The position numbers and the translations under genes were made by a program. A DNA stretch of 64,000 nucleotides from an uncultured Hyphomicrobiales bacterium (GTDB lineage Bacteria; Pseudomonadota; Alphaproteobacteria; UBA7879): the NCBI GenBank assembly GCA_964402405.1, contig CAYOCE010000001.1, positions 435-64,434 of the forward strand, written 5' to 3'. Shown here one piece after another: positions 14,919 through 54,476 of this stretch (its first letter is position 1; each line of letters starts with the position of its first letter). Below the pieces are notes generated by a model. It made no database searches, had not been told where the DNA came from, and worked only from the letters and a program-made list of their open reading frames with translations.

Positions 14919-14939
14919 CTCTACTCTTCGCCTTTCAAA

Positions 14940-15966: not shown

Positions 15967-15976
15967 TTCCCTTCTC

Positions 15977-17422: not shown

Positions 17423-17477
17423 GTGTATATACTCCTAATACCTTAATTTAAATTTACCATAAAATTTTTAAAATCAC

Positions 17478-27232: not shown

Positions 27233-28102
27233 CTATTTAAGATATTTTTTTAAGCAATCACGCACTTTACATTTAAATGTAAACAAAATTATTTTTACAA
27301 CCTGTAAAAAATTTTTAAAAAAAGGGAGTAGTAATTCTGTAAGATGAAAGTAGCCTTTTTGCCAAACTAGTTTGTACACATAAAATAAGCGAATTATGTA
27401 TTTTAAATTTCTCCTTACAACACTTGAAGCAGTAAAATTTGAAAATCTAGCGTCTCCAGAGTAGTAAAGAAGTAAATGCTCTTCTATACAAAATAACTGG
27501 GTTTTCTTTGAAATACGCAAAACAAGCTCAAAATCTTCAGCGCCCGCAATTTTTTTTGTTTCATCAAACCATTCAGTTTTTTTTAAAAGAGCTTTTTTAA
27601 TAACAACAGAAGATAAAGGAACTGTATTTTTATACAAAAGATTTTTACTAGTGATGAGGGCAGGGCCTTCCTCCTCAAGATTAATCCATTCTTTTTTTTC
27701 ATTAAATCGCTTCATTTTTGTACAGCATAAACCAAAGTTTGGATTTTTCGATAAAAATGATAGCTGTTTTTCTAGTTTTTCTGGCAACCAAATATCATCA
27801 TCATCACAAAAAGCAATATAATTACCTTTAGAAATGCGTATTCCATGATTTCTCGGGGAGGCGGGGCTACCACTACCTTCTTGAAAAATAAATTTTATTC
27901 TTGGATCTTGAAAACTTTTAACAACGGCTTCTGAATCATCTGTTGATCCATTGGAAACAACAATAATTTCATAATCTGAGTACGTTTGATTTAAGATACC
28001 TTCAATGGTCTTCTTTAAAAGAGAGGCTCTATTAAACGTAGGAATTATAATACTGACTTCAGGCATCTTTGTCCCATTTAAAATGTATCTGATTGGTATC
28101 AA
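27233..28102 (-). CDS. Family 2 glycosyltransferase
   Basis: VSIIIPTFNRASLLKKTIEGILNQTYSDYEIIVVSNGSTD...CDDDD. Confidence 0.85.
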   Translation of the reverse strand: MIPIRYILNGTKMPEVSIIIPTFNRASLLKKTIEGILNQTYSDYEIIVVSNGSTDDSEAVVKSFQDPRIKFIFQEGSGSPASPRNHGIRISKGNYIAFCDDDDIWLPEKLEKQLSFLSKNPNFGLCCTKMKRFNEKKEWINLEEEGPALITSKNLLYKNTVPLSSVVIKKALLKKTEWFDETKKIAGAEDFELVLRISKKTQLFCIEEHLLLYYSGDARFSNFTASSVVRRNLKYIIRLFYVYKLVWQKGYFHLTELLLPFFKNFLQVVKIILFTFKCKVRDCLKKYLK

Positions 28103-28487
28103 TTGGTAATCGTTCTACCTCATTTGGATCATATACCCCATTTAGGATATTAGCTATTAGAGCAGGATTGTCATCTAAAGATTTAAATGCATACCAAACC
28201 CCAATTGGGATTTTAATGAGGCCATAATTTTCCTTAGTGATATTAATGATGGAAAACTTATTTGCTTTTTCATCAAATAAAACCACCTGAAGGTTTGCTG
28301 TAGGACTTGTCATGTAAGAGGTATTTATACTGTGGCGATACCATCCTTTAATAAACCCAGGGTTTATCCAGGAAAAATAACTTTCTCCAAAAGAATCAAA
28401 AAAGAAGTCTGTGGACTTTAGAAAGTGAAGTACTTTTCCTCTTTCATCTTCTATATATTTCAGGGGAAAAAAATTAATTTGATTCAT
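28059..28487 (-). CDS. WxcM/FdtA-like cupin (NDP-sugar 3,4-ketoisomerase family)
   Basis: ~140-aa cupin with ERG...HF...RG/W.YRH pattern. Family assignment is tentative. Confidence 0.45.
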   Translation of the reverse strand: MNQINFFPLKYIEDERGKVLHFLKSTDFFFDSFGESYFSWINPGFIKGWYRHSINTSYMTSPTANLQVVLFDEKANKFSIINITKENYGLIKIPIGVWYAFKSLDDNPALIANILNGVYDPNEVERLPIDTNQIHFKWDKDA

Positions 28488-29397
28488 TTTCTTTTAACTT
28501 TTGAGTATGTTTAATACACTCTGTGATCCCATCTTCTATAGAAATGGTGGGAGCATATTTTAAAACTTGAAAAGAGTCCGTAATATCTAAAATAGCGCCA
28601 AACCCAGAAACTTGTTGCGCGCCGATCTTTACTGTATCCTTTTCCTCCATTTTTTTCTTAAAAAAAGACTCTATAAAACTTTGTATATCCCTTAAATTAT
28701 ATCCTTTTCCTCCACCCACATTAATAATGCCCGTATGGTTGGAAAATAAAGCAGAACAGACACCTTTTGCTGCATCTTCTACATGTACAAAATCTACTAC
28801 TGCATCAGGGTTGTTTAAAGCTACAGTTTTATTTTTTATAGCATTAGCAATAAGTGTGGGTAGTAACTTATGCGCATGATCATCTGGTCCATATACATTG
28901 GAGAGTCTTACCCAACCAAACGAAATATGTTTTAAAGTATGATTTAAAAGAGCCTGCATGCAATCGTAAACATGTTTTTTACATATTCCATACAGAGTTG
29001 TTGGTAACGCTCCTTTAAAATCATTTGGAACTTTTCCACTTGTTGTTCCAGTTTCATGAATACTTCCCGTAAAAATAATTCTAGAAGAGGGGTTTTTGTG
29101 TGCAAATTTAGCTATAAAATCAAGGCTTGTTGCAGCAAAGTTAACATGATCAAGGGAATTATGAGGAGGGGTCAATGGCCATGCAAGATAAACTAAATGG
29201 GAATAGCTAGTCTGATTTAAAAATTTTTCTACACCCTCAACATCACAAATATCTAATTGATAGTACGTATGTTTTTTTGATTTTAGAAAGTTAAATGAAG
29301 GTAGTCTGCCAATAATCGACACATCATAGGTTAATAAATTATTTAAACATGCACGCCCTAAAACGCCTGATCCACCAACAAATAATATCTTTTCCAA
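28474..29397 (-). CDS. NAD-dependent epimerase/dehydratase (SDR), probably an NDP-4-keto-sugar reductase
   Basis: Rossmann motif VGGSGVLG and a YGICK catalytic dyad. Confidence 0.65.
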   Translation of the reverse strand: MEKILFVGGSGVLGRACLNNLLTYDVSIIGRLPSFNFLKSKKHTYYQLDICDVEGVEKFLNQTSYSHLVYLAWPLTPPHNSLDHVNFAATSLDFIAKFAHKNPSSRIIFTGSIHETGTTSGKVPNDFKGALPTTLYGICKKHVYDCMQALLNHTLKHISFGWVRLSNVYGPDDHAHKLLPTLIANAIKNKTVALNNPDAVVDFVHVEDAAKGVCSALFSNHTGIINVGGGKGYNLRDIQSFIESFFKKKMEEKDTVKIGAQQVSGFGAILDITDSFQVLKYAPTISIEDGITECIKHTQKLKENESN

Positions 29398-29399
29398 TG

Positions 29400-30476
29400 T
29401 TATTTTTCCATAAATTCCATAATTTGTTTGCGCGTTATTTGAACGGCTTCTTCATCTTGCTGAATGCGCTGATACCATTCACCCGTTTTCATAACAGCTT
29501 CATTAAAGGGAAGTTTTGGTCCCCATTTCAACAGTGTCTGGGCTTTATCAATGGAGAGGTGAAGCAAGTTGGATTCATAGGGTTGATTAGGATCTGATTC
29601 AATCTGAACCTTAGCATCTTTCCATAAAGATTTTAGGACGTTAGTTAGTTCCAAAACAGTTTTAATGGATTGATTTGAAGGTCCAAAGTTCCACGACTCC
29701 CCATTATATTGATTTGAATTTTTATACAGATGTGCCCCTAAGCATAAATAACCATGCAAGGGGTCTAAAACATGCTGCCATGGTCGGGTAGATTGGGGAT
29801 TTCTAAGAATAATGGGGTTTTTACTTTCGACCGCTCTAATTATATCAGGTACGATACGATCTCGGGACCGATCTCCTCCCCCTATAACATTTCCAGCCCT
29901 GGTTGAGCCACATCCAAAATTTTTTCGATCTTTAAAATAAGATAAATAATAACTCTTGAATACATGTTCGGCAGAAGCCTTGGAGGCACTATAAGGATCG
30001 GGACCGCCTAGTTCATCATTTTCCCGATAACCCCAAACCCATTCTTTATTCCAATAACACTTATCGGATGTTATATAGACCAAGGAACGTACAGAAGGAC
30101 ACTCTCGAATAGATTCTAATATGTTTACCGACCCCATAACGTTTGTACTAAAGGTCAGCCGGGGATCTTGGTATGAGCGTCTTACGAGGGCCTGAGCAGC
30201 AAGATGAAAAACAAATTCAGCCTTAGATTTTATCAATGATTCTTTTAGGTTTTCATAATCTCTGATATCACCCACGATATGAGTTATACGTTCAGATAAC
30301 CTGAGTTTATCAAACAGAGAATCTTCATACTCCGGAGCAAGAGCATAACCTGTAACCTCTGCACCAAGTTCGTTCAACCAAAAGGCAAGCCAGGCTCCTT
30401 TAAAGCCTGTATGTCCTGTAATAAAAACTTTTTTTCCTTTATAAAACTCTGTAAGGTTCATTTCCATGTTTTCCAA
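29400..30476 (-). CDS. rfbG: CDP-glucose 4,6-dehydratase
   Basis: VFITGHTGFKGAWLAFWLNELGAEVTGYAL N-terminal signature, with an adjacent cytidylyltransferase. Confidence 0.8.
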   Translation of the reverse strand: MENMEMNLTEFYKGKKVFITGHTGFKGAWLAFWLNELGAEVTGYALAPEYEDSLFDKLRLSERITHIVGDIRDYENLKESLIKSKAEFVFHLAAQALVRRSYQDPRLTFSTNVMGSVNILESIRECPSVRSLVYITSDKCYWNKEWVWGYRENDELGGPDPYSASKASAEHVFKSYYLSYFKDRKNFGCGSTRAGNVIGGGDRSRDRIVPDIIRAVESKNPIILRNPQSTRPWQHVLDPLHGYLCLGAHLYKNSNQYNGESWNFGPSNQSIKTVLELTNVLKSLWKDAKVQIESDPNQPYESNLLHLSIDKAQTLLKWGPKLPFNEAVMKTGEWYQRIQQDEEAVQITRKQIMEFMEK

Positions 30477-31237
30477 GGTGCTTTATTCTGCTCCCACAAC
30501 TGATTTAAAAGTTGATATTCTCGTGATGTATCCATTGGATGCCAAAAGTCTTGATGCTTATAGACCATCAACTGACCGTCTTTGACGATATTTGTAATCG
30601 GTTCTTTTTCAAAAATTAAATCTTCATTCGGGGTAAGATAATCCAAAACTTTACGATTGCACACAAAAAAGCCCGCTGAAATCCAACCTTCTGTTACCTG
30701 AGGTTTTTCATTAAATCCAACAACCTGATTCCCATCCAATTCTAATTCTCCAAATCTTCCTGGAGGATGGGCTGCTGTTATGGTCATCAATTTGCCATGT
30801 GATTTATGAAACTCTACAAGCTGTTTTATGTCAACGTTTGAAACACCATCTCCATATGTTAACATGAAAAGATCGTCATTTTGAACATATTGCTTGATCC
30901 TAAAAACCCTAGCACCTGTTAAAGAATTCAGACCTGTTTCTGCAAATGTAATTTTCCAATCATCAATCACACGATGAGAATGATCTTCGATTGATTTATT
31001 TTTTAAATCTAAGGTAAAATCATTTTGACGTTTCTGATAATTTAAAAAATAATCTTTAATGAGGTCGCTTTTATAGCCCAAACACAAAACAAATTCTTTA
31101 AACCCATAATGCGAGTATTGCTTCATAATGTGCCAGAGAATGGGATAATTTCCAATAGGAATCATCGGTTTTGGTAGGTCACTCGTCACATCACGAATCC
31201 GGGTTCCATACCCACCTGCAAGAATTACTGTTTTCAC
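30458..31237 (-). CDS. rfbF: Glucose-1-phosphate cytidylyltransferase
   Basis: MKTVILAGGYGTRIRDVTSDLPKPMIPIG...EKP nucleotidyltransferase signature. Confidence 0.85.
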   Translation of the reverse strand: MKTVILAGGYGTRIRDVTSDLPKPMIPIGNYPILWHIMKQYSHYGFKEFVLCLGYKSDLIKDYFLNYQKRQNDFTLDLKNKSIEDHSHRVIDDWKITFAETGLNSLTGARVFRIKQYVQNDDLFMLTYGDGVSNVDIKQLVEFHKSHGKLMTITAAHPPGRFGELELDGNQVVGFNEKPQVTEGWISAGFFVCNRKVLDYLTPNEDLIFEKEPITNIVKDGQLMVYKHQDFWHPMDTSREYQLLNQLWEQNKAPWKTWK

Positions 31238-31242
31238 TTTAT

Positions 31243-32205
31243 CTACCGTTTTTTAATTTTAATTAAAATCTGATTGCCATAATTGTATTTCTCAATCATC
31301 TCTTGATACTTCATCTCAAAATCATTAAGGAGACTAGAAATGCTTTCCCCTAACTTACTGTTAGTTGTATAGAGGGATTTCTGAATGTTTTCTAACAATT
31401 GGTCCCCCCCCACCAAAACATTATTGTTAATAGGTCTGTTATTAAAATACCAATGCAGGTGATTATAAATACTATATCCTTGCTTCGTCTCAGCTACCCC
31501 GGAGATATTAAGCATATTGTTCTTAAGCCGTGCAAACAAACTTTTAATAGCATTTAATGAGTAGTAAGCTACAGCACATTCATCATAAAAAAAGCTTTTG
31601 TAGCCTTCATTGCACCAAACATCTTTTAAAACATCATCAAGATTAGGCGTAATAAAAATTATTTCTCCGTTTGTCTCTAACATAGAAATCAGAGATTCAA
31701 AATATTTTATTGGGTTTTGTATGTACTCAAGACAGTAAAATGAAAATATTTTTTTAAATTTTATATTTTCTGAAAGATATTTATCTAAGCTTTCAACGCA
31801 CGGAATATTCAAATTTGATTGAACAAATTGCGCTCGAACAGGATTAATTTCTAATCCATATGGTACACAACCATTTTCTTGTAAGGCCTTTAAAAAATAC
31901 CCCCAAGAACACCCGATTTCTAGAACATTTTCCCCCATATCGTCTGATGAGATGTATTCTTTAATATAACCTTGAGATTGGTTGTACCCATTTTGAAAAT
32001 CCTTTTCTTGCTTTGGGATATCTAAGCCAGCTGATTCAAGACGAGTTTTATCTAGTTGATTGGTAGAAAGCAGAGAAATATTTTCGTGGTCGAAAAATTC
32101 AAAATGACAGTGTTCACAATAATTTATAACTGCTTGCTTTTTTGATCGCAACTGAACAGATTTTTGTTGTGTTTCACCACTACATAACCAACATTTTATA
32201 CTCAT
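31243..32205 (-). CDS. Class I SAM-dependent methyltransferase with an N-terminal Cys4 zinc-ribbon (sugar C- or O-methyltransferase candidate)
   Basis: CWLC...CEHCHF ribbon and motif I VLEIGCSWGYFL. Confidence 0.5.
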   Translation of the reverse strand: MSIKCWLCSGETQQKSVQLRSKKQAVINYCEHCHFEFFDHENISLLSTNQLDKTRLESAGLDIPKQEKDFQNGYNQSQGYIKEYISSDDMGENVLEIGCSWGYFLKALQENGCVPYGLEINPVRAQFVQSNLNIPCVESLDKYLSENIKFKKIFSFYCLEYIQNPIKYFESLISMLETNGEIIFITPNLDDVLKDVWCNEGYKSFFYDECAVAYYSLNAIKSLFARLKNNMLNISGVAETKQGYSIYNHLHWYFNNRPINNNVLVGGDQLLENIQKSLYTTNSKLGESISSLLNDFEMKYQEMIEKYNYGNQILIKIKKR

Positions 32206-33140
32206 ACTTTGTCCTCAACAATTTGATCTGCCCAATTTTTAAATTCCTGCAACCCACGAATTAAATCATATTTAGGTGAATATCCAATCACATGGGAAGC
32301 CTTAGAAATATCTGCATAACATCCCATTATATCACCTGGCGTATTCCCAATGACCTCTACTTTTACTTCTTTATTGTATATAGAAGCAATTAAATTTATT
32401 AACTCACCAATGGTGGTTTTAACACCTGACCCAATATTAAAAATTTGATTGGGGATATTCTTCTTAAGACACAATATCCAAGCATCCACAATATCATCGA
32501 TATATACAAGATCCCTGAATCTTTCTAGTTTTCCTTGAACCGGAATATAGTTTCCTTCTTTTACATAACTCAGAAAAATGCTCACAATTCCTTGATCTTT
32601 TCTGGATAAATCTTGTCCAGGCCCATACACATTAAACATCCTTAAGGCATTCCAGGAAATGCCAAGTTTCTCTGCATATATTTTTAAATAATACTCACCC
32701 GTTAGCTTTCCTAATCCATAAAGAGATTTTGGATCACATGGTAAATCCTCGCTTAACATTTCATGTTGAGCATTATCCCCGTAAACTGTGAAGGATGATG
32801 CAAATAAAATTCTGGGAACTTTCAAATGATCACATAAACGAATCATGTTTAACGTTCCTAAAATATTTACTCTAAGATCATGTTCTGGATCTTTAAAAGA
32901 GGCCACGCCAGAAGATTGTGCAGCAAGATGTAACACGGCATCAAAACCGTTACTCAGCTCAATTTTTTTTAAGGATTCAAAATCTGTTATATCTGCTTTT
33001 ACAACATGCCTATTGCTCGTATCAGTTACAATATTGGTCGAAAAATTATCCAGGATAGTCACTTCATAATTTTCTTGTTCAAGTTTTTGAACAATTCGGG
33101 ATCCAATATATCCCATTCCACCAGTTACTAAAATTTTCAT
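32202..33140 (-). CDS. NAD-dependent sugar epimerase/dehydratase (SDR)
   Basis: VTGGMGYIGSRIV and YGLGK. Confidence 0.7.
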   Translation of the reverse strand: MKILVTGGMGYIGSRIVQKLEQENYEVTILDNFSTNIVTDTSNRHVVKADITDFESLKKIELSNGFDAVLHLAAQSSGVASFKDPEHDLRVNILGTLNMIRLCDHLKVPRILFASSFTVYGDNAQHEMLSEDLPCDPKSLYGLGKLTGEYYLKIYAEKLGISWNALRMFNVYGPGQDLSRKDQGIVSIFLSYVKEGNYIPVQGKLERFRDLVYIDDIVDAWILCLKKNIPNQIFNIGSGVKTTIGELINLIASIYNKEVKVEVIGNTPGDIMGCYADISKASHVIGYSPKYDLIRGLQEFKNWADQIVEDKV

Positions 33141-34222
33141 GATATTAATCCACTGTTCTTTTGAAATTCTTTCATTTCTACCAGAAAACGATCCATTAAA
33201 TCCTTTATCCCAAGGGTAACTGTAATGTACCTATCCCACGGGGCTGACCAAGGTCCCTTTACATATATTTTTCTTTCGCGCAAAAATTCAACACATTTCT
33301 TGCAGTTTTCAGCTGTCTTCAAATCTATCAAGAGATAATTTCCTTTGTTACCATAAGAAAAAATGCCAAGTTTTTTTAACTCTTCTTTGATATAAGCTCT
33401 TGATTCATTAATTTTATCCGTATAATTTTTCACTATCTCAAAATGATCCAAGAGATATTCAGCAACTGCTGCACTAAGGGCATTTGCTTCATGGGCGAAA
33501 CGTGTTTTTGAAAGCAATTCCATGTTCTCAGTGCTTGAAACCATATATCCTAGACGAATGGACGGAACCCCAAAAGCTTTTGAGAAAGTACGCATAACAA
33601 CTACGTTTTCAAATTCATCCACCAAGGGTATTGCTGATTCTGCTCCAAAGTAGTGGTAAGCTTCATCCACCACGAATAAACACCCTACCTCTAAACATTG
33701 TCTTGCCATATGACGTAACTCCTCCAGAGAGAAACAAGACTCAATTGGCTGATTAGGATTGGGAAGAAAGAAAATCCTGGGATTGGATTTCAAAAAACTC
33801 TTAAAGCTATCTGAGTCCATACTAAAATCTGGCTTGTAATCCACATGAATCATTTTTGCTTGAAATAGCTTAGCGTATACATCGTACATGGCATAAGTAG
33901 GATAAAGAACACCAACACACTCATTGGGTTCTATAAGAACTTCAAAGAGCGTTTTGATGACGCCATCAATCCCAGAAAATACAAGAACTTGCTCTTCTTT
34001 TACACTCAAATGACTTGCCAACTTTTTATACAAACCAGACAAATCTGGATAGATGCTAAAAAAAGCTGCGGGTTTGGATTTTAGAGCTTCAAGAATAAAA
34101 TCTTTAGGCCAATTATCAACTTTCTCATTACGATCAAGCCTTAAGCCGTTGACCAAATCACGTTCTTCAGATATGCGAACTCGCTTTATATCTCGTAGAT
34201 AGCTTTTTTTAGTAAGAAACAT
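33137..34222 (-). CDS. PLP-dependent aminotransferase, class I/II (HisC-like fold)
   Basis: RTFSKAFGVPSIRLGY lysine motif, similar to histidinol-phosphate/threonine-phosphate class enzymes. Unusual inside a sugar locus. Confidence 0.55.
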   Translation of the reverse strand: MFLTKKSYLRDIKRVRISEERDLVNGLRLDRNEKVDNWPKDFILEALKSKPAAFFSIYPDLSGLYKKLASHLSVKEEQVLVFSGIDGVIKTLFEVLIEPNECVGVLYPTYAMYDVYAKLFQAKMIHVDYKPDFSMDSDSFKSFLKSNPRIFFLPNPNQPIESCFSLEELRHMARQCLEVGCLFVVDEAYHYFGAESAIPLVDEFENVVVMRTFSKAFGVPSIRLGYMVSSTENMELLSKTRFAHEANALSAAVAEYLLDHFEIVKNYTDKINESRAYIKEELKKLGIFSYGNKGNYLLIDLKTAENCKKCVEFLRERKIYVKGPWSAPWDRYITVTLGIKDLMDRFLVEMKEFQKNSGLIS

Positions 34223-34231
34223 GGAATTACC

Positions 34232-36037
34232 TCATTTAGTTAAAAGAAATTGAAACATTTTATAGTCGGGTTTTTTATAATAAGCCTCGAAAAAAGATTT
34301 AAATTTTTTACAACACTCAGTATAGTAAGTTTTGTCTTCTAGTAATTTTTCAACAACCTTACTCCCTTCTTCTATGCGACTAATTTGAAAAGATGCATCC
34401 GCCATTTTATCAACATCAATCTGTATATCAGATTTTATGAAAAGAGCAGGTATTCCTCTGGCCGCCGCACTAAAGCTAACAGAGCTTGAATTGTAAAAAA
34501 CTAAATAGCATTCGTCAATGAGGGCATCCCAATTTAAATCAGAAATTACAGAATTAATTTTTTTGTCTTTCAAAGTTTTTTCAATTATTTTTTTTGCATC
34601 TTGTGACATATAAGGGTGAAAATTAACAACCAGCGTTATATTTTTTAAAAGAGAATCAGTAAGATTTTCCATAATTTCAGAGACCTTGTTTACCAGCTCA
34701 AGGGAGTCATTTAGCTGAATAGAACAGCTACATAAAATTTTTCTTTTTGTTGATCTAGAAAATTTTTTAAGATGATCTGTAGCATCTTCTAAAGAAGAAA
34801 GCCTAACATTACCCAGCAATTTATAGTCTAAGAATCCTATATCCTTCAATCTTTTTCCAAATATTTCATCACTTAATAGTATGGTAGGGCTAATTTTTTT
34901 ACTAATGTAGGCTTGGGATGGGTAACATGTTAAATAATCCTGTGCCACAGGAAAATGTTGATAAGCAAAAACCTTACCTTTGGGAAACTGCGTACGAAAA
35001 GAAAGACTTAAGAGTTTTTCCCAAGGTTGATTTTCATAGGGGTATACTAATGTAATGCTAGACTCTTCAATTTCTCTGAAAATATTTTGAGAAGCATAAT
35101 AGGTTTCAAGTGCCAATGACATCCTATAATTTAAGGCATCCTTAAGGCAAAACCACTTCCACAAACTTGAAAAATTTATATCGTCAATCTTAAAGCGGTG
35201 ATTGAAATACCTCAGGAAGCGAAAGGATACGACAAAAGAATAAAGCACTTCCCTAATTTTAACAAAATCTTGGATAAATAAAGAACTTTTATTTTCTTTT
35301 AAAGAATTTTTTATAATTTTATAAAAAGGAAAATTAAAATCTAAGGGTTTCCCTATCACTGCCAAGTCAATATTTGATTTTTTTAGATGAGAAAGAAAAT
35401 CTCCAAAATATCTATCTTTGAAGAATAAATTTTCAGGATTAAATGATTCTAATCCAATCCAATTTACACATAAAACCTTAGATTTTTTAACAATAGATAA
35501 ATCAATGGGTGTCTTATGATAGATTCTTAAAAATTTTAAAATTAAAATTTTCCAAAAAGCTTTAGAAACTTCTCGCATTTTCCTCCATAAAAATCCCAAC
35601 ATTCTTTTAAGGAGGAAAAAATAATTAATCCTGCTACTTACTTCAAATCCATTATTTTTTAAAATTTTAGAATAAATAAAAACCTGTTCATCATCATCAC
35701 AGATAAAAACTACATCTTTATATTTTGGAAGAACCTCCTTGATAATTGCAAGTGAGTTTAAAATGTATAAGGAAAAATTTTCAAGGCAAAGATTATTTTC
35801 AGCAAGATCGCTGGCGAGCCATAAAGAATCTGAAACATCTGGAATGTTTTTATCTAGATTGATAAGAGTGTTTTTATATTCTAATAATATCTTTTTTCTG
35901 TGAACAGATAGATCCTTGACTGGGACTTTTTTCTTTTTGAGATAGAGAAAATTTTTAATTTTTACGCCTAAAAAATAAACATGCGTATGTCTTTCATAAG
36001 TAAAATTTCCTTTTTTTGTTGAAATAACCAGTGTCAT
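34232..36037 (-). CDS. Large GT-B-like 'HP-motif' protein, paralog 1 (KpsS/KpsC/TagF-like capsule glycosyltransferase candidate)
   Basis: C-terminal VVNFHPYMS ... LIDECYLVFYNSSSVSFSAAARGIPAL pattern, shared with 42876-44717 and 52989-54155. Confidence 0.35.
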   Translation of the reverse strand: MTLVISTKKGNFTYERHTHVYFLGVKIKNFLYLKKKKVPVKDLSVHRKKILLEYKNTLINLDKNIPDVSDSLWLASDLAENNLCLENFSLYILNSLAIIKEVLPKYKDVVFICDDDEQVFIYSKILKNNGFEVSSRINYFFLLKRMLGFLWRKMREVSKAFWKILILKFLRIYHKTPIDLSIVKKSKVLCVNWIGLESFNPENLFFKDRYFGDFLSHLKKSNIDLAVIGKPLDFNFPFYKIIKNSLKENKSSLFIQDFVKIREVLYSFVVSFRFLRYFNHRFKIDDINFSSLWKWFCLKDALNYRMSLALETYYASQNIFREIEESSITLVYPYENQPWEKLLSLSFRTQFPKGKVFAYQHFPVAQDYLTCYPSQAYISKKISPTILLSDEIFGKRLKDIGFLDYKLLGNVRLSSLEDATDHLKKFSRSTKRKILCSCSIQLNDSLELVNKVSEIMENLTDSLLKNITLVVNFHPYMSQDAKKIIEKTLKDKKINSVISDLNWDALIDECYLVFYNSSSVSFSAAARGIPALFIKSDIQIDVDKMADASFQISRIEEGSKVVEKLLEDKTYYTECCKKFKSFFEAYYKKPDYKMFQFLLTK

Positions 36038-36101
36038 TTTATTAATTTATTTTTCAGAAAAAAATAAATGGTTGCTTAAATTGCATCTATAATTAGAGTT
36101 T

Positions 36102-36917: not shown

Positions 36918-36963
36918 TTTTGTTCTTTCCTATTAAAAATGTATATTTTGAAATGTGGTTATT

Positions 36964-38181: not shown

Positions 38182-38182
38182 T

Positions 38183-42716: not shown

Positions 42717-42875
42717 CTATATCTCTCTCTTTAAAATTGCTTTGATCCACGCCCAAAAATAACTTTTATTATTGGCATACATTTCAAGAAACTCTTTTCT
42801 AACACTTTGTATCTTCTCATCATACCACCATTTTTTATATCATTCATTTTTTAAATTCCACTTAGTAAATAAAGC

Positions 42876-46054: not shown

Positions 46055-46648
46055 TTATTTATACATGTAAATTGTGAAATCATGGGGTAAATACTCATGC
46101 CTTAAAACAATTTTTTTTGTTAATCCTGCACAAAACTCCAATGTCTTAATGGGATCTGCATAAAACTCATTCTCTTCTTGGTGTAGGGCCCAAGAACTAA
46201 GAGAATTGAATGCTACACCCTTTTGAGCTAAGGAGAACATATGTTTTATTAAATCTTTCATAGTTTCTTCAGGGTTTGATTGAATTAAGTAAAAAATTCC
46301 ATTAGCAATGAGAAAATCTTTTTTCTTTGTATAGTCTAACAGATTTTTGTGTTTAAAAAGATCCTTATCATATTTTGATTTGCATAGATTTATCATCTTT
46401 TCAGAAAGATCAATACCTTCATATTGAACCTCTCCAAATTTTTTTTTCAAATATACATAAAAATCTCCCGTACCACACCCAACATCTAAGATATTAATTG
46501 GTTCTTGATCAAAAAAATCTAAAAATACCTTAAATTTTCTTTCCTGACTTTCTTTACGCCCATAATCGCATGATTGGTGGGAGTCACCATATTTTTCAAC
46601 AAGAGTGTCATAATATTTTCCAATATCTGTACGATTATCTATCTGCAT
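46055..46648 (-). CDS. Class I SAM-dependent methyltransferase
   Basis: ILDVGCGTGDF motif I. Confidence 0.7.
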   Translation of the reverse strand: MQIDNRTDIGKYYDTLVEKYGDSHQSCDYGRKESQERKFKVFLDFFDQEPINILDVGCGTGDFYVYLKKKFGEVQYEGIDLSEKMINLCKSKYDKDLFKHKNLLDYTKKKDFLIANGIFYLIQSNPEETMKDLIKHMFSLAQKGVAFNSLSSWALHQEENEFYADPIKTLEFCAGLTKKIVLRHEYLPHDFTIYMYK

Positions 46649-47678
46649 GAAAATACTCCCGTATATGTTTTATGACCAATGCTTGTTCCCTCTTTTTTAG
46701 GCTAGGATAAAGAGGTAAAGACAAGTTTTTTAAAAATGAAATTTGGGCATTTGGATAATCCTTAAACGAATCGGCCCAAGGATGGACTGGTAGTTCTGCA
46801 AAAATTCCTTGAGAATTTAGATGCTTCTTAAGACTGACTATTTCATTTTCAGATATACGTAATACATAGCGATACCAAATTCTGCCTATAGAATTTTTTG
46901 GTAATTGAACCCCATATTGTTCTAGGTCTTTCAGTTGCTCATTATATCTTGTTGCGAGATGAGTCCTCTTTTCTATTATTTCTCCTAATTTATTTAACTG
47001 ACAGATCCCTAAAGCACCTTCAATATCTGTCATTTTATTATTAAATTTGGATTTATCGGGCTTTTGATCTACATAGCTACGCCATTCTGTTATTTTTTCT
47101 TTATAGCTCTCAGAGTTTGTTAAAATTGCCCCCCCTTCACCTGTTCCTATAAGCTTTGTTGCATAAAATGATAAGACTACAAAATCTCCCACTGACCCAT
47201 ATAATTTTCCATCAAAAGCATGTGCGCAATCTTCAATGATAGGAATGTTCGTTTTTTCTTTTACTTTTCTTATATTAACAGGCTCTCCAAAAGTATGAAC
47301 CACGATTAAGGCCTTCAATTCAGAAAAATTGGAGCACTCATCAATCGTATCGCTATCGAAAGAGTTATCCAAAGGAACAGGTATTGCCCCTACGGATAAT
47401 ATGGCATTAACTATAGCAACACATGAATATGCTGGAAAACCCACCTTATCATTTTCTTTTATATTTATAGAAATTAAAGAAAGCCGTAACGCAGAAAAAC
47501 CAGAATCTAGACAAATTGCAAACTTTTTATCCACTGTTGCAGCTAATTTTTCCTCAAACTCCTTGACCTTTTTACCCATAGCTATATGACCAGATTGGAT
47601 AACTTGCTTAACCGCTTTTTCTTCGAATTGATCTAAGTATGGTTTGCTGTGAGGTATTAACATTTTCATATGAAACAT
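46635..47678 (-). CDS. pseC: DegT/DnrJ/EryC1-family PLP aminotransferase (PseC candidate)
   Basis: DegT fold with the SFYATK lysine motif, adjacent to the pseH, I, G, F and B candidates. Confidence 0.75.
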   Translation of the reverse strand: MFHMKMLIPHSKPYLDQFEEKAVKQVIQSGHIAMGKKVKEFEEKLAATVDKKFAICLDSGFSALRLSLISINIKENDKVGFPAYSCVAIVNAILSVGAIPVPLDNSFDSDTIDECSNFSELKALIVVHTFGEPVNIRKVKEKTNIPIIEDCAHAFDGKLYGSVGDFVVLSFYATKLIGTGEGGAILTNSESYKEKITEWRSYVDQKPDKSKFNNKMTDIEGALGICQLNKLGEIIEKRTHLATRYNEQLKDLEQYGVQLPKNSIGRIWYRYVLRISENEIVSLKKHLNSQGIFAELPVHPWADSFKDYPNAQISFLKNLSLPLYPSLKKREQALVIKHIREYFHADR

Positions 47679-47809
47679 CGTTCTTTACTAAAGTTCGAAT
47701 TTATTAAGGTACACAAGAGAACTAGACATCTAACGCTGTATATTTAAGAACCCTTAAAGAACCGCTACACTGAAGATAGAATTCTTCATTTTTTTCATGA
47801 AGTTCCAAG

Positions 47810-48256
47810 TCATATTGTTTTTTTCAAGTAGTAATGATTTTCATCATTATCAATAATGAGAAATCCATTTTTTATAAAAAAACACTTGGATGTGCTGTTA
47901 TCAATTGATACATCCGCTAAAATACTCTGATTTTTTTCTAAAACATTTTGTATTAGGTATGAAAGAACTTGAGAGCCAATGTTTTTTCCTCTAAATTGGC
48001 TCAGTAAAAAAATAGAAATTTTATAAACACCCTCTGTAACAAAATTTAATCTCACTTGCCCAACTTTTACAGTATCATTAATAATAATAAAATTAAAGCT
48101 GCGTAAATCAGAAAGAACGTTTTGAAACCATATATCATGTTCTTCTCTGGTAACTTTTCTCTTTTCGCTTCCTAAAGGCCATATAGACGGATCATTTCGC
48201 CATAGAAATAGAGTATCAGCATCAGATTGTTCTATTCTTTTTAAAAGCAAAGACAT
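47810..48256 (-). CDS. pseH: GNAT N-acetyltransferase (PseH candidate)
   Basis: FRGKNIGSQVL acetyl-CoA motif, 148 aa, immediately downstream of the NeuB-family synthase. Confidence 0.6.
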   Translation of the reverse strand: MSLLLKRIEQSDADTLFLWRNDPSIWPLGSEKRKVTREEHDIWFQNVLSDLRSFNFIIINDTVKVGQVRLNFVTEGVYKISIFLLSQFRGKNIGSQVLSYLIQNVLEKNQSILADVSIDNSTSKCFFIKNGFLIIDNDENHYYLKKTI

Positions 48257-49305
48257 TATAAAAAATCGTTCAATATTAATGTTGAAAAAGCTTTAACAGG
48301 ATTTTTTACCCTTCTTCCCACTATATAATTTGCTAATTTGGGAGGAATTCCTCTCCCTGGGCGGATAAATAATAAATCATTTTTTGATAAAATATCTCCT
48401 GGGTTCAACTCTCTTGCGGCACAGCAAGAAAGACGAAAGCTTTCTCGTGAACCATATTCATGCTCAGTAGGTCCTAATTGTGGCTTGCCAATGGCTTTTT
48501 CCATATACCTAACACCTTCCACCATCTGGGAAAATTCTTTGGCATCAGATGAAAATCTGTGATCAGGCCCGGGCAAATTTTTATCAAGGGTAAAATGTTT
48601 TTCAATCCAGGCAGCAGCATATGGAATTGACCCAACTGCTGCCCAAGCCCCCTCTGAGTGATCACTAAACCCTGTAACAACCCCAAAGGCATCTTTGAGA
48701 GTTTTAATTTTTTCAAGATGAATATCCTCGGCTGGCGTGGGATAACGAGAGGTGCAATGAAGCAAAATAAGGTTATTATTTCCCGTGCTTCTGAAAATAT
48801 TCACAGCATCGTCAATTTCACTAATCAACGCCATCCCCGTTGATAGGACTGTGGGGAGTCCTGATTTACCCATATACTCAACAAGATCAAGATTTGTTAA
48901 GTAATCTGATCCATTTTTTAACACGGCGACGCCTATTTTTTTTAGTAAATCCACCCCCTGAAAATTAGTGGGGGTTGAGTGAAAATCTATATGGTTGGCA
49001 TCACAAAAGGATTTTAAATCAATAAGTTGTTCATCGCTCAGCTCATAGCGCTTGAACATATCATATTGAAATTCTTTAACTACTTTTCCTTGAAAAATAT
49101 ACTCATATTCTAGATTTTTTGTTGGAACAAAATCTTCCGTTTTGTAATTTTGAAATTTTACAGCATCAGCTCCAGCTTCTTTAGCTGCAAGAATCGCTTT
49201 TTTGGCAAGATTCATATCTCCATTATGATTAATGCCAATCTCTGCAACAATATATGCAGGGTATCCTACCCCAATCTTTTTTAATCCTAAATTAATACAG
49301 CTCAT
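48256..49305 (-). CDS. pseI: Nonulosonic acid synthase, NeuB family (pseudaminic acid synthase candidate)
   Basis: AYIVAEIGINHNGD TIM-barrel N-terminus plus a C-terminal SAF domain. Confidence 0.8.
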   Translation of the reverse strand: MSCINLGLKKIGVGYPAYIVAEIGINHNGDMNLAKKAILAAKEAGADAVKFQNYKTEDFVPTKNLEYEYIFQGKVVKEFQYDMFKRYELSDEQLIDLKSFCDANHIDFHSTPTNFQGVDLLKKIGVAVLKNGSDYLTNLDLVEYMGKSGLPTVLSTGMALISEIDDAVNIFRSTGNNNLILLHCTSRYPTPAEDIHLEKIKTLKDAFGVVTGFSDHSEGAWAAVGSIPYAAAWIEKHFTLDKNLPGPDHRFSSDAKEFSQMVEGVRYMEKAIGKPQLGPTEHEYGSRESFRLSCCAARELNPGDILSKNDLLFIRPGRGIPPKLANYIVGRRVKNPVKAFSTLILNDFL

Positions 49306-50264
49306 GAATACCCTCTAAAACTAGCTTAACGCCATTACCATCGCAAATTTCTGCAGCATTTTTTTGTAGTGATCGAAGCCCATCTTTATTTTTGATTAGA
49401 TTATTTATTAGTTCAGGCCCACAGCTTCTTTCAGTATTTTCAATATCTTTAATCAACAAAGCGGCTCCACTTTCCTCAAGATTTTTGGCAATTAATTCTT
49501 GATCTGGACTTAAAACAACCATAATTGTAGGAAGTCCTAATGAGCATCTTTCCCACACACTACTACCCGCAGCCCCTATAGCTAAATCTGCATCATATAT
49601 CAGTTTTGACATATTGGGATTTATATGAATAGCATATTCATTAGGCATAGTAGCAATATACTCTTTAATAAGATAGGCGTTTTGATCAGAAAAACCTAAA
49701 ATAATATCTATTGAACCTGTGAATTCAGAGCGTTTAATCATCTCTAGAGCTTTTAAGGTATAATTTTTAGGGTCGCTCCCCCCCATCGAAATTAAAATAC
49801 GTTTAACTTCCTGTGTTTTCTTCCTTTTTTCAAGAGCCATTGGACGCAGTTCCGTAAATTCCTTGCGCAACAAAATATAATCACTGCCTGTAAAAATTTT
49901 ACAATGCTCTGGAGCTAACTGTCGATAGTCAGTAGCCTTTCGACCATATGTTTGATCTAGTAAAATATCACAGTCATGCTTTCTATTGGCAAGATCATCA
50001 ATTACCATAATTTTTTTTGCATGGAGTCTAAAATGTTTCTCATATTGCTCATCAAACCCATAGCCATCGATCACGAGCAAATCACAAGATATAGGATGCT
50101 CATAAAAGTGAGTCGGATCAAGTCTTTTGAAGCGATTCAAAGCTGGAATAAACTCACAGGTTTCAGAGGATGTTATAATTTGACATATCCATCCCTGCTC
50201 AACCAAAGCATCTGCAATAACACCCGAACGTATAGCATGTCCTGCCCCTATTGAAATAGAACCC

Positions 50265-50290
<26 letters not shown>
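49292..50290 (-). CDS. pseG: PseG-like UDP-sugar hydrolase (GT-B fold)
   Basis: N-terminal SISIGAGHAIRS motif of the PseG/MurG-like family. Confidence 0.6.
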
Positions 50291-51937
<1,647 letters not shown>

Positions 51938-52198
51938 TTAAGGGTTTAACTCTTAAATCTAGCTATTGATAAATATTTGTCAGCAATTTCTGATGGATTA
52001 GGGGTTTGTGTAAATGCTGTGGGTGTTTTATCTCATTCACCACAGCTGCCGCAGTCTGGGTGAAAATCACCAAGACTACAAAATTTGTAGCTTTATTACA
52101 TTCAATCCCTGAATAACCCATCAGAAAGATTGATTCAGAGATTTTTAGATCCCCATGTTAACCATACGAATGGCATGTTCAGTCATAGAATCCTTTTC

Positions 52199-52774
52199 TT
52201 ATACAGCTTCCACGGCATAAGAAGGAAGCGAAATATGCATCTCTCGCCCTAAAAAGGTTAACAACAGTTGAACACGCTGTTTATCACTCATAAGCTCTAA
52301 TACACCTGTGTGGTCTTTAAAGACGCCCTCTAATACACGAACTTTATCACCTTTTGTGAACGTCGCCAAGCTGTTTACAGAAACGATCCCGCTCTCTATT
52401 TCTTGTGATTTTAAATCCTCAATAATTTGCATCGATAGGTATGCAGGATGTTTATCGCTTTCCATTAATAAATAAGACACACCCCGGGTTCCATTGATAC
52501 TGCGCCACCTGGTAGTTTCTAAATTCACTCCCACAAACAAATATCGAGGGAACAATGGCGCCAAGACTTCTTCCACCTTGCGTGCGTGACGGCGCAGTCT
52601 TTTAAATCTTGGTAAATAAACCTCAAACCCTTGATCAAGTAAATTCTTTTGGGCTATGAGTTCTTTTGAAGGTTGTGTATAGGCAACGCACCAATTGGTC
52701 AGAGAGGGATCTTCGTGAGATGTAGTAATATTCCTTAGCTTTTTTTCCTCCAAAGTATTTTGGAAAATTGCCAT
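52199..52774 (-). CDS. NusG-paralog transcription antiterminator (RfaH/UpxY-like) at the head of the polysaccharide locus
   Basis: NGN domain (WCVAYTQPSKE...GFEVYLPRF) plus a KOW motif (FTKGDKVRVLEGVFKDHTGVLE). It is followed by a 288-nt untranslated spacer before pseB. Confidence 0.7.
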   Translation of the reverse strand: MAIFQNTLEEKKLRNITTSHEDPSLTNWCVAYTQPSKELIAQKNLLDQGFEVYLPRFKRLRRHARKVEEVLAPLFPRYLFVGVNLETTRWRSINGTRGVSYLLMESDKHPAYLSMQIIEDLKSQEIESGIVSVNSLATFTKGDKVRVLEGVFKDHTGVLELMSDKQRVQLLLTFLGREMHISLPSYAVEAV

Positions 52775-52909
52775 TTAGAGCACCCCTTAAAAACCAGAAA
52801 ACAAAATTATGTTCATGAACAAAACTTATCTTAAATTGTCACACTAGTCAACGGTACCTTGAAATTTTTTATGTTCAACTGCATTTCCTCTACTTTAAAA
52901 GAAATGAGT

Positions 52910-52937
52910 CCTCTTTTCCAAAATTTTGGAAAAGAGG
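52910..52937. terminator. Perfect 28-bp palindrome between the upstream GT-B gene and the NusG paralog (terminator or operator)
   Basis: cctcttttccaaaattttggaaaagagg equals its own reverse complement. A T-rich tract follows on the minus strand. Confidence 0.5.
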
Positions 52938-52988
52938 AACCACCGACTACAGTTTATAAAATATAAGTAAAACTTTCTGACTTACGAT

Positions 52989-54155
52989 CTACGTATTAGA
53001 AATCACTTTTTCGCGTACATAATCCGCCACAATGTCTGAGCCTCCTCGAGGCATCCCAATTTTTGCACATACATCTACTTTTTTCACTTTAGCTCCAGAG
53101 CCAACTATCCCATCAATAGCAACGCGGAGTGTACCAGCATCGGCAACTCGAGAGGCAATACCCACCGCCGTTGCAAAGTTTTTATAGTCAGGCCCCGCCA
53201 CATACAGCACGGGAATTCCCATATAAAGCGCCTGCATCCCAACACTAGATTTATGGGTCAAAATTATATCCACAATTGTTGCAATTTGAGGTGTTGTAGC
53301 AACCTTAGAATCGACGATTTGTACGTGTTCCAGTCCTTCAGCAGCAGATTTCTCAAGATTTCCTGTCATCTTGGGGTGCGTTGTAACCAATATTTGAATA
53401 TTTTTCATCTCTCGAATCGCGTCAAAAAAGGTTTGTAAATATTTTGGATACTCTCCTTCATACGCCCCTCCCACAAACAAAATGGTTTTCTTTTTCTCAT
53501 CCAGCTTTAGCTTGGGTTTCAAGGCATTCACATCTGTTTTAGCAAAAGCTTTCTCCCAATCCTCAAGAGCGGGTTGTCCAGACACAATAATTTCAGCCTT
53601 TTGATTCTTAGCTTTCAGCTTGGTTTTCAACAGTTCTACTAATCCCTGATGGGGGACCATGTAGGCATCAATTGAGCCAATTTCCTCAAAGAATGGTTCC
53701 GCATAAGGTGTCGAATCAAAGGGGTCAAAATTATCATAAAACGCCACCACATGGACCCCCTTGGATTTAAAGTGATTTAAAATTTGGGCTTGGACTTTAG
53801 AGGCCATTCCTGCAATCACCAGTTTTGGTTCTACCTCTTGATCCAGCTGATGCAATTCTTCAACCGACAAAGTATCAGTCCGTTTCATGTGACGCACATC
53901 TTTTTGGATAATAAAATCCAACACGGCGGGATGGGTCTTTAGTTGTTCTTTTGAAATACCAAACGCCAAAATTTTATATCGAATACCTTTCTTTTGCCCA
54001 GGGGCTTTCTTCTTTAATTTTGCCGTCATGGGAAGCAACCCATTTTTATCCCCCGTATCATACGTTGAAATTAACAGATCCACCTTTTGAGGCGTTGAAA
54101 AAACGGGGAAGATAAAGAACAGCAGATAGAGAGTCGTAAAAATGAGGTGTAACAT
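52989..54155 (-). CDS. GT-B 'HP-motif' protein, paralog 3 (KpsS-like, alternatively LpxB-like), with an N-terminal hydrophobic segment
   Basis: IQILVTTHPKMTG ... IVDIILTHKSSVGMQALYMGIPVLYV pattern. The N-terminal LLISTYDTGD...RYKILAFG also weakly resembles the LpxB N-terminus. Confidence 0.35.
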   Translation of the reverse strand: MLHLIFTTLYLLFFIFPVFSTPQKVDLLISTYDTGDKNGLLPMTAKLKKKAPGQKKGIRYKILAFGISKEQLKTHPAVLDFIIQKDVRHMKRTDTLSVEELHQLDQEVEPKLVIAGMASKVQAQILNHFKSKGVHVVAFYDNFDPFDSTPYAEPFFEEIGSIDAYMVPHQGLVELLKTKLKAKNQKAEIIVSGQPALEDWEKAFAKTDVNALKPKLKLDEKKKTILFVGGAYEGEYPKYLQTFFDAIREMKNIQILVTTHPKMTGNLEKSAAEGLEHVQIVDSKVATTPQIATIVDIILTHKSSVGMQALYMGIPVLYVAGPDYKNFATAVGIASRVADAGTLRVAIDGIVGSGAKVKKVDVCAKIGMPRGGSDIVADYVREKVISNT

Positions 54156-54425: not shown

Positions 54426-54476
54426 GAAAAAAATGGTTTGGTTATGTAAGAAGTTTATTTTTGAAAGGAGATAACT

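Follow-up and report, generated by a model that had tools for sequence, protein, structure and literature searches.

In Escherichia coli and Salmonella the RfaH–ops (JUMPStart) system controls long lipopolysaccharide (LPS), capsule and other xenogeneic operons, and in E. coli the rfaH gene is unlinked to its targets. RfaH is recruited by a 12-nt ops element in untranslated leaders (PMC2871177). RfaH homologs are frequent in Alphaproteobacteria, which account for 18% of the rfaH genes in genome surveys (PMC7593976), so the presence of such a regulator is in itself not new in this class. Here we describe a locus at positions 27233-54155 of the window, i.e. the whole stretch of 64,000 nucleotides analysed from contig CAYOCE010000001.1 of an uncultured Hyphomicrobiales bacterium. 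The locus is probably a horizontally acquired operon of the RfaH/ops type, which builds a surface heteroglycan containing a nonulosonic acid (NulO). RfaH-controlled, horizontally exchanged NulO glycan loci are an already known class, and this operon is one more member. What appears to be new, judging from sequence comparison, is the arrangement of an RfaH-like gene and an ops-like element in cis and its conservation. Useful by-products are the conserved element itself, a missing flippase, two rare GT-B families and one uncharacterised sugar-acid module.

Further described systems resemble parts of this locus. Pseudaminic acid (Pse) is made by PseB/C/H/G/I/F in Campylobacter and Helicobacter, and by the flm genes in Caulobacter. 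In Tannerella forsythia, proteins of the BFO_1060 family are genetically required for the addition of Pse or legionaminic acid (Leg) derivatives to the O-glycan and were classed as TagB-like enzymes of the GT-B type that bear D/E-D/E-G and HP motifs (PMC5420450). A "Lic12162-family transferase" is encoded beside neuABC in the LPS biosynthesis island of Herbaspirillum seropedicae AU14040 (PMC6679464). Finally, lipid-linked glycan pathways of the PglK/Wzk type are represented by the pgl system of C. jejuni and the O-antigen pathway of H. pylori.

All 29 open reading frames (ORFs) of at least 90 aa that are not nested in a larger one lie on the minus strand in the region 27233-54155, as do all features of the locus given below. 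From pseB (50900-51910) to a GT2 glycosyltransferase gene (27233-28102), 27 genes follow one another closely, the junctions ranging from −46 to +159 bp. Upstream of pseB follow, in this order, a 288-bp non-coding leader, the gene for a 191-aa NusG paralog (52199-52774), a 214-bp spacer and a 388-aa gene (52989-54155). The spacer contains an intrinsic-terminator-like hairpin (52909-52938; 13-bp stem, loop of 4, T-rich tail), which ends the transcription unit of the 388-aa gene. The locus is bounded by the convergent trpS (26217-27212) and the divergent comM (54477-55973).

The base composition of the locus differs clearly from its surroundings. Mean GC content is 0.339 for the locus genes compared to 0.414 for 32 flanking genes (Mann-Whitney p = 1.2e-7), GC at third codon positions is 0.260 compared to 0.387 (p = 4e-8), and the summed fraction of phenylalanine, tyrosine, asparagine, lysine and isoleucine in the encoded proteins is 0.328 compared to 0.270 (p = 1.4e-4). 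The lowest GC values of the locus (0.27-0.29) are found at 34.2-38.2 kb. The native GC content is kept by the NusG paralog gene (0.41) and by the 388-aa gene (0.42), and according to this a native regulator heads a foreign, AT-rich cassette. Within the operon 14 terminator-like sites were counted, compared to 6.4 ± 2.4 in shuffled sequences.

The same gene order was found in at least five further metagenomic contexts, namely L082/L084 (from the NCBI metagenome-assembled genome (MAG) GCA_018242545.1), L083, L085/86, L087/88 and L089. An additional context, P0094, shares the core of the cassette and has a first transferase from another family. The shared order starts with NulO and tailoring genes, followed by a transferase of about 600 aa, an HpcH-type aldolase, a KdsB-like cytidylyltransferase, a 2-hydroxyacid dehydrogenase, a short-chain dehydrogenase/reductase (SDR), a HAD phosphatase and a Pgl-like protein. 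It continues with a methyltransferase, a second transferase of about 600 aa, a HisC-like and a GalE-like protein, one or more methyltransferases, a GT2, an SDR and, in some loci, a GT4. The core proteins are 47-93% identical to those of the window, L083 being the closest copy (76-93%), and all these loci are AT-rich (GC 0.28-0.37). The lengths of the 27 window genes, all of which are intact, equal those of their orthologs in L082-L089. Since the rfbF/rfbG genes, the GNAT or formyltransferase genes and the aldolase module (all described below) are exchanged among the loci, the locus is best seen as a mosaic whose modules can be exchanged, much like loci that determine a serotype. The order of a sugar module followed by a transferase is kept in the five other contexts.

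An earlier reading of this DNA from its letters alone (the sequence-only reading) had described a minus-strand gene run with short or overlapping junctions, apparently AT-rich and coding for Lys/Asn/Ile-rich proteins, and had taken this to fit horizontal acquisition. The gene run is confirmed by the ORF map, and the compositional comparison with the flanks gave significant differences in all three measures. Horizontal acquisition is probable, given the AT-rich composition. An accessory nature of the locus is supported: behind a shared RfaH/ops head, relatives have other sugar genes than the window, and the cassette recurs in unrelated surroundings, two of which adjoin ParA-like genes. The proposed head of the run was right in so far as the NusG/RfaH-type paralog stands there, but this gene and the 388-aa gene have native GC content and the latter lies behind a strong terminator.

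With regard to the ParA-like genes, a gene for a ParA/MipZ-like ATPase and one for a repeat-rich 409-aa protein without family match precede the cassette in L083 (1-2158), and the P0094 context ends with a ParA-like gene and a gene for an unknown 497-aa protein. These neighbours hint at carriage by a plasmid or mobile element. The 409-aa protein is unrelated to the 388-aa protein of the window.

Protein families were assigned to the 61 ORFs of the window by Pfam and NCBIfam profiles, applying the curated (equivalog) cut-offs. The 191-aa NusG paralog (PF02357 NusG, E = 1.6e-15) reaches its best NCBIfam score with RfaH (TIGR01955, 113 bits), followed by UpxY (75), NusG (68) and LoaP (49), and its PDB matches rank E. 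coli RfaH (2e-10) ahead of NusG (5e-7). A metagenome scan yielded eight loci with RfaH homologs that are 55-63% identical to that of the window. By comparing the DNA directly downstream of the RfaH-like genes, and subsequent alignment, a conserved leader element was found (52040-52083 in the window), the core 18-mer of which, CACCCAGACTGCGGCAGC, covers 52045-52062. The element lies in the 288-bp untranslated leader (51911-52198) between the RfaH-like gene and pseB, the RNA of which folds with z = −3.1 compared to shuffled sequences. The pattern CACCYRGRCTGCGGYAGC is present as a single copy, on the same strand and directly after the RfaH-like gene, in L001, which stems from the organism of the window, and likewise behind every RfaH homolog of the seven further loci L090-L096. 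The 18-nt pattern is absent from all of 89 other loci, and the window holds one copy compared to 0 expected by chance, even when up to three mismatches are allowed.

The core GCGG(T/C)AGC of this element corresponds to positions 2-9 of the E. coli ops GGCGGTAGCGTG. Identity is 8/8 in L093-L096, which carry a T at ops position 6, and 7/8 in the window, where the ops-like octamer GCGGCAGC is located at 52045-52052 and position 6 is a C, as in L090 and L091/92. A predicted hairpin upstream overlaps the leader element and is tentative, with one compensatory base pair. The interpretation of the NusG paralog as RfaH-like, put forward by the sequence-only reading, is thus strengthened by a conserved ops-like element which that reading had not seen. 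Like the E. coli and Salmonella systems, the locus combines a NusG paralog whose best match is RfaH with a short conserved element, situated in the untranslated leader of a polysaccharide operon that is long, AT-rich and probably of horizontal origin, a likeness of sequence. Unlike in these systems, the regulator gene stands in cis, directly upstream of the ops-like site and its target, in which it resembles UpxY or LoaP, and outside the core the 12-mer of the window diverges from ops. The RfaH recognition core (GCGGTAGC) may therefore be conserved far beyond enterobacteria, with an RfaH/ops-like pair in a deep alphaproteobacterial lineage and a natural T/C variant at a key ops position.

In L082 and L083 the regions upstream of pseB share no element with the window leader, and no RfaH gene is adjacent there. 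Directly after the ops-like core the window has a hairpin of its own at 52016-52046 (GCTGTGGTG-N12-CACCCACAGC). In L095 a same-strand gene for a MarR-family "EPS-associated" regulator (9453-10031; TIGR04176, 59.5 bits, cut-off 88) extends into the start of the RfaH-like gene.

Two enzymes of the Pse pathway pass the equivalog cut-offs: the inverting UDP-GlcNAc 4,6-dehydratase PseB (50900-51910; TIGR03589, 508.5 bits, cut-off 407.75) and the UDP-6-deoxy-AltdiNAc hydrolase PseG (49292-50290; TIGR03590, 232.8 bits, cut-off 153.55). Both are specific to the Pse route, and the Pse branch was therefore accepted. The set is filled by four proteins that are too divergent for the curated models. The PseC candidate, a DegT-family sugar aminotransferase (46635-47678; PF01041, E = 7e-61), scores 180 bits with PseC (TIGR03588, cut-off 423.5) and 168 bits with LegC, and its PDB matches are generic (H. 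pylori PseC, 5e-22). The PseH candidate, a GNAT N-acetyltransferase (47810-48256), has its best match to PseH (TIGR03585, 42 bits, cut-off 93) and shares 37% identity with the GNAT at the end of the L095 Pse cluster. The PseI candidate, a NeuB-family nonulosonate synthase (48256-49305), finds a pseudaminic acid synthase as best PDB match (8h2c, 1.2e-50) and scores higher with NeuB_NnaB (328.8 bits, cut-off 399.65) than with PseI (TIGR03586, 257.8 bits, cut-off 340.25). The presumed CMP-Pse synthetase, a cytidylyltransferase of 226 aa (50265-50945; PF02348, E = 2e-22; PDB 6oew, 4e-32), probably starts at an internal ATG, yielding the 211 aa that were also called in L001. It does not match the PseF model TIGR03584, only CTP_transf_3 and KdsB-like N-termini being recognised. 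By these profile scores four of the six Pse steps appear divergent or non-orthologous, and the activation with cytidine monophosphate (CMP) would be performed by a non-orthologous cytidylyltransferase.

The locus also differs from the known Pse pathway by genes for an S-adenosylmethionine-dependent methyltransferase (46055-46648), a WbqC-like protein (45368-46054) and a PIG-L/LmbE deacetylase (44704-45375), all identified by Pfam. They probably tailor N-acyl groups, which implies a modified Pse. This trio is kept beside the large transferase in L082, L083, L087 and L088, and in L089 the WbqC and PIG-L genes and the end of the methyltransferase gene are present. Another difference concerns the GNAT: L082, L083 and L087/L088, close relatives of the cassette, have a formyltransferase-like gene (Formyl_trans) in the region of the window GNAT and no tblastn match to the GNAT itself. 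In L095, a 674-aa fusion (15399-17423) of a CTP_transf_3 cytidylyltransferase and a class-III (GSA-aminomutase-like) aminotransferase, an unusual architecture, is encoded within the Pse cluster.

The second branch is formed by a module of six genes (38183-42716) identified by profile matches. It encodes an HpcH-type pyruvate aldolase (42009-42716), a KdsB-like cytidylyltransferase (41254-42012; NF009905, 273.5 bits, cut-off 255), a D-2-hydroxyacid dehydrogenase (40302-41261), an SDR (39407-40327), a HAD phosphatase (38788-39435) and a Pgl/NagB-like protein (38183-38788). The gene order is kept in L082/84, L085, L087/88 and L089 at 48-80% identity. In L083 the module is replaced by a 4-hydroxy-2-oxovalerate-aldolase-like protein and a KdsB-like cytidylyltransferase. 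The pairing of a KdsB-like enzyme with either of two different types of pyruvate aldolase supports synthesis of a CMP-activated 2-keto-3-deoxy acid by a pyruvate-aldol route, and the product of the six genes would be a second CMP-activated 2-keto-3-deoxy sugar acid. A literature search for a polysaccharide module combining HpcH and KdsB returned no description of such a module. Downstream of it lie the genes for an SGNH/GDSL hydrolase (36964-38181) with two predicted N-terminal transmembrane helices and for a TylF-type O-methyltransferase (36102-36917; profile match). This pair, with GC values of 0.27-0.29 the lowest of the locus, is present in L082 and L089, and Methyltransf_21 takes its place in L085 and L087.

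The third branch leads to a cytidine diphosphate (CDP)-activated 6-deoxyhexose. Glucose-1-phosphate cytidylyltransferase RfbF (30458-31237; TIGR02623, 344.6 bits, cut-off 300.25) and CDP-glucose 4,6-dehydratase RfbG (29400-30476; TIGR02622, 464.3 bits, cut-off 278.45) both pass their cut-offs and are followed by an SDR reductase/epimerase (28474-29397) and an RmlC-like cupin of 142 aa (28059-28487). L082-L089 lack the rfbF/rfbG branch, but the P0094 context has it. The operon is closed by the GT2 gene (27233-28102; PF00535, E = 2e-36), which is convergent with trpS. At the equivalent position the related loci have a GT2 with 31-39% identity.

Between the 601-aa transferase gene described below and rfbF lie the genes for a HisC-like class I/II aminotransferase (33137-34222), a GalE-like SDR (32202-33140) and a methyltransferase (MT320; 31243-32205). 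This trio is found in the same order and at 58-93% identity in all related loci. It was considered as part of the CDP-hexose branch and rejected, as it represents a conserved module tied to the 601-aa transferase and recurs in loci without rfbF/rfbG. Likewise, an FdtA-like function of the cupin was dismissed: it has no FdtA match and is closest to a dTDP-sugar isomerase/RmlC-type protein (PDB 3ejk, 1.2e-21).

Three nucleotide-sugar branches in an AT-rich NulO locus headed by a NusG paralog, with a GT2 at its end, had been postulated by the sequence-only reading, and this outline holds. Within it, PseB and PseG stand as named, PseC, PseH and PseI belong to the right superfamilies below the cut-offs, and the name pseF has to be given up in favour of CTP_transf_3. 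In the CDP-hexose branch RfbF and RfbG are retained, but the FdtA-like cupin and the assignment of the HisC-GalE-MT320 genes are not.

Nonulosonic- and ulosonic-acid transferases are a class with few characterised members. Two large glycosyltransferases of the GT-B type are encoded within the operon, one of 613 aa (42876-44717), a presumed Pse transferase, and one of 601 aa (34232-36037), a presumed transferase for the second sugar acid. The 388-aa protein, which has an N-terminal transmembrane or anchor helix (residues 1-19) and a transcription unit of its own, is GT-B-like. The 613-aa protein has no Pfam match, and neither the protein itself nor the profile of its family found a relative among PDB sequences. 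Its closest structures are TarL, UDP-GlcNAc 2-epimerases and TagF, and the TagF/TarL-like GT-B fold is evident from two Rossmann-like domains and a conserved His-Pro (HP) in the nucleotide-binding half. The family is rare: among 1.84 billion, 80 cluster representatives match at E ≤ 1e-3, with lengths of 600-650 aa in nearly every case. BLASTP detects no similarity among the three proteins. Profile-profile comparison shows remote homology over the C-terminal approximately 300 residues, linking the 613-aa family to the 601-aa family (96.9%, E = 1.7e-10) and, by hhalign, to the 388-aa protein (94.7%, E = 6e-8), with the HP motif aligned in both cases. The sequence-only reading had counted two large HP-motif GT-B proteins in the run and a third paralog beyond its head; both stand within the run, but all three are related to each other at profile level only.

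Weak but significant matches to the Tannerella family (NF046086, BFO_1060_trans) were obtained for the 388-aa protein (38.8 bits, E = 6e-10; in addition Glyphos_transf, E = 1e-3) and the 613-aa protein (26.9 bits, E = 2.5e-6). As the family cut-off is 200, these scores, taken as profile evidence, indicate remote relatedness only. The proteins share with Tanf_01245, TFUB4_00887 and BFO_1060 the TagB/TagF-like GT-B character, the HP motif in the C-terminal half and a position beside NulO genes. Unlike these, the 613-aa and 601-aa proteins have about 270 extra N-terminal residues and fall into separate rare families, LIC12162-like and TIGR04326-like. The gene equivalent to that of the 613-aa protein carries the newer Pfam label LIC12162 (PF27859) in related contexts. 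Weak matches link the 613-aa protein to TIGR04396 and the 601-aa protein to TIGR04326 ("O_ant_LIC13510"). The same uncharacterised families stand beside NulO (neu/pse) genes in Leptospira-type loci, a link by family names only, and in the Herbaspirillum island; the matches here are weak and no member family has a demonstrated activity. Being repeatedly co-linear behind the Pse and the pyruvate-aldolase/KdsB-like modules, the two rare families of about 600 aa are candidate NulO and ulosonic-acid transferases.

No kps, wzx/wzy or wzm/wzt genes were found in the 61 ORFs of the window, which covers about 64 kb of the genome, and no rkpRST/kpsMT-like exporter is present there. No locus protein has more than two predicted transmembrane segments, so a polytopic membrane protein is lacking in the locus, in agreement with the exporter gap noted by the sequence-only reading. 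In six of the eight related RfaH loci the gene next to the RfaH gene encodes an ATP-binding cassette (ABC) exporter of 587-599 aa with fused transmembrane and nucleotide-binding domains, and the NulO genes follow it. The copies are 61-68% identical to the exporter of L095, and the family scores, all below cut-off, rank PglK (322 bits; cut-off 1000) before MsbA (274) and HepA (266). The sugar genes behind the L095 exporter are a Pse set related to that of the window (PseB 81%, PseG 56%, PseI 73%, GNAT 37% identity). Furthermore, the same exporter (60.6% identity) is encoded directly upstream of pseB in L082. By tblastn, no remnant of it is detectable in the 288-bp leader of the window. The locus thus resembles the PglK/Wzk-type pathways in the exporter heading the cassette of relatives, in glycosyltransferases that are all soluble or monotopic and in the lack of a Wzy-type polymerase, but differs from them in that the exporter is missing and that no initiating transferase, WaaL or PglB/PglL was seen in the window.

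The following mechanism is proposed. In it, gene content, composition, the conserved RfaH/ops-like pairing, the GT-B folds and the conservation of the cassette are observed, and donor specificities, order of assembly, carrier and final acceptor are predicted. Modelled on E. coli RfaH, transcription would enter upstream of or within the native RfaH-like gene, and RNA polymerase would pause at the ops-like element of the leader. There the RfaH-like protein would be loaded on the non-template strand, by analogy to E. coli RfaH, and would carry the polymerase across the roughly 24.7 kb of foreign, AT-rich sequence, which contains many weak terminator-like sites. The encoded enzymes would provide three sugars. 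Tailored CMP-Pse would arise via PseB, aminotransferase, GNAT, PseG, NeuB-type synthase and cytidylyltransferase together with deacetylase, WbqC-like protein and methyltransferase. The second acid would be formed by the pyruvate aldolase instead of a synthase dependent on phosphoenolpyruvate (PEP), and activated by the KdsB-like enzyme. The CDP-6-deoxyhexose would be made via RfbF, RfbG, epimerase and reductase. Behind each module stands its presumed transferase, namely the GT-B of 613 aa for Pse, that of 601 aa for the second acid and the GT2 for the CDP-hexose. The chain would be assembled cytoplasmically, most likely on a lipid carrier, by GT-B and GT-A enzymes that are monotopic or soluble. 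In relatives the product would be flipped by the PglK/MsbA-like ABC exporter whose gene separates pseB from the RfaH gene; in the genome studied here the exporter and a ligase or oligosaccharyltransferase would be encoded elsewhere. The final address is most likely LPS (O-antigen or outer core), favoured by the names of related families and the literature context.

Several observations weigh against an RfaH/ops-controlled NulO glycan operon. The 191-aa protein stays below the TIGR01955 cut-off of 144.5 bits, ops position 6 is C in the window and T in E. coli, the canonical 12-nt ops GGCGGTAGnnTG does not occur in the leader within two mismatches (matches in the window are at chance level), and the Rfam JUMPstart model is unmatched at the gathering threshold and, in 51850-52300, also at E ≤ 10. 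The PseC, PseH, PseI and PseF candidates all miss their equivalog cut-offs, and donor specificity was assigned to the GT-B proteins solely by gene order and weak family similarity. Moreover, genes for a flippase, a polymerase, an initiating phosphoglycosyltransferase, a ligase and an oligosaccharyltransferase are all lacking from the locus and from the rest of the approximately 64 kb visible. The same gaps bear on the alternatives. Absence of an exporter and a polymerase from the locus, here and in the five related contexts (L082 having the exporter directly upstream of pseB), would suit a protein glycosylation island that transfers the glycan or single Pse-type residues onto flagellin, pilin, S-layer or other envelope proteins, either by direct cytoplasmic transfer (Maf/FlmG-like) or, as in T. 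forsythia, via a lipid-linked oligosaccharide with the help of an O-oligosaccharyltransferase. We regard this as unlikely, yet Tannerella-type O-glycosylation remains a serious rival: the 388-aa and 613-aa proteins match the BFO_1060 family, members of which add Pse/Leg derivatives to a protein-linked O-glycan in Tannerella, PglK, the best match of the relatives' exporter, is the flippase of a protein-glycosylation pathway, and Pse occurs on flagellin in Alphaproteobacteria such as Caulobacter (PMC7591256). However, no locus protein contains a Maf (PF01973) or TPR/FlmG-type domain, and the window has no gene for a flagellin, pilin, S-layer protein or oligosaccharyltransferase. Three sugar branches and a GT2 (GT4 in relatives) suggest an oligo- or polysaccharide over the decoration with single residues, and the names of the related families (LIC12162, TIGR04326 "O_ant") derive from Leptospira loci of the LPS type.

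Group-2 capsule operons of E. coli are typically controlled by RfaH. Together with the KdsB-like CMP-transferase, the production of acidic CMP-activated sugars and a kdsD gene in the window (62748-63722), this could be taken for a group-2 (Kps-type) or rhizobial K-antigen-like capsule, in which KpsS/KpsC-like enzymes would act on a lipid-linked primer of poly-Kdo and KpsMT/KpsDE would be encoded elsewhere. The sequence-only reading had argued along these lines with group-2 kps logic, which is not upheld. Neither KpsM/T, KpsD/E nor KpsS/C (Capsule_synth) domains were detected among the 61 ORFs by Pfam or NCBIfam; a KpsS/KpsC identity of the three large proteins was rejected, since none matches Capsule_synth; and kdsD sits with lptB/A/C at 60.5-63.7 kb, an ordinary LPS context. 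The exporter linked to the cassette in relatives is a fused PglK/MsbA-type half-transporter and not KpsMT, which argues for a lipid-linked intermediate, so that a Kps-type capsule is extremely improbable. Six of the eight related loci have this exporter between RfaH and sugar genes, L082 has it before pseB, and it has gone from the window without a remnant. Such a loss could also mean that the cassette is silent or decaying after acquisition and makes no surface glycan now, the more so as the host is probably genome-reducing and carries tlc. But tight or overlapping junctions, an intact ops-like element and RfaH-like gene and 27 of 27 intact genes favour an exporter encoded elsewhere, and decay is very improbable. 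Thus, an LPS-directed glycan operon of the RfaH/ops type is the reading that we prefer.

A more far-reaching interpretation of the cassette is possible but rather doubtful. The six-gene module, comprising HpcH-type aldolase, KdsB-like cytidylyltransferase, 2-hydroxyacid dehydrogenase, SDR, HAD phosphatase and Pgl/NagB-like protein, might constitute a so far undescribed route, independent of PEP, to a new 2-keto-3-deoxy sugar acid that is activated with CMP and installed by a dedicated Pfam-less GT-B family of about 600 aa. With the LIC12162-like Pse transferases it might form a mobile cassette, built as sugar module then transferase, behind a lineage-conserved RfaH/ops landing pad. In the tlc-bearing host the cassette has lost its PglK-like flippase, and on this reading either a different way of export or an acceptor in the cytoplasm would have taken over.

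The tlc gene is located at 10102-11646 (PF03219, E = 3e-197). A contig scan with ComM found its best relatives at 54-62% identity, mostly in alphaproteobacterial MAGs and Rhodospirillales-type genera, and none above 62%. According to tlc, a Tim44-like protein, DUF2155 and the ComM relatives, the host is an alphaproteobacterium. An intracellular, energy-parasitic lifestyle is plausible; that it is obligate is suggested by tlc only. Literature searches, including a stricter query, returned no link of Pse to Holosporales-like, Rickettsiales-like or other symbionts. The retention, in a probable energy parasite, of 27 intact genes serving an elaborate acidic glycan argues that the surface coat of this bacterium matters in host association.

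Some further features were observed in the window. Between the 388-aa gene and comM, a near-perfect extended palindrome of about 115 nt (54320-54437) folds as RNA with −62 kcal/mol (z = −5.6; 0 of 200 shuffles as stable) without an Rfam match, and could be a REP/RPE-like element or a small RNA. A 57-nt direct repeat of 82% identity at 3828-3884 and 14923-14979 lies in the 5′ leaders of two minus-strand genes, encoding a class II ribonucleotide reductase (192-3797) and a ferredoxin (14592-14918), and may represent a shared regulatory leader. A second island of low GC (4289-9847, plus strand; gene GC 0.31-0.42) encodes MlaD, DUF2155, an OmpA-family protein, a pentapeptide-repeat protein, a TAXI-type TRAP solute-binding protein and a TPR-secretin. 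Within it, a 37-nt inverted repeat (6075-6159; 86% complementary, 11-nt loop) starts at the end of the OmpA-family gene and is possibly a terminator. Near tlc, a gene for an AAA_14/DUF4143 ATPase (13136-14398), located between the genes for an AmpG-like MFS transporter and the ferredoxin, has a GC content of 0.38, which is lower than that of its neighbours.

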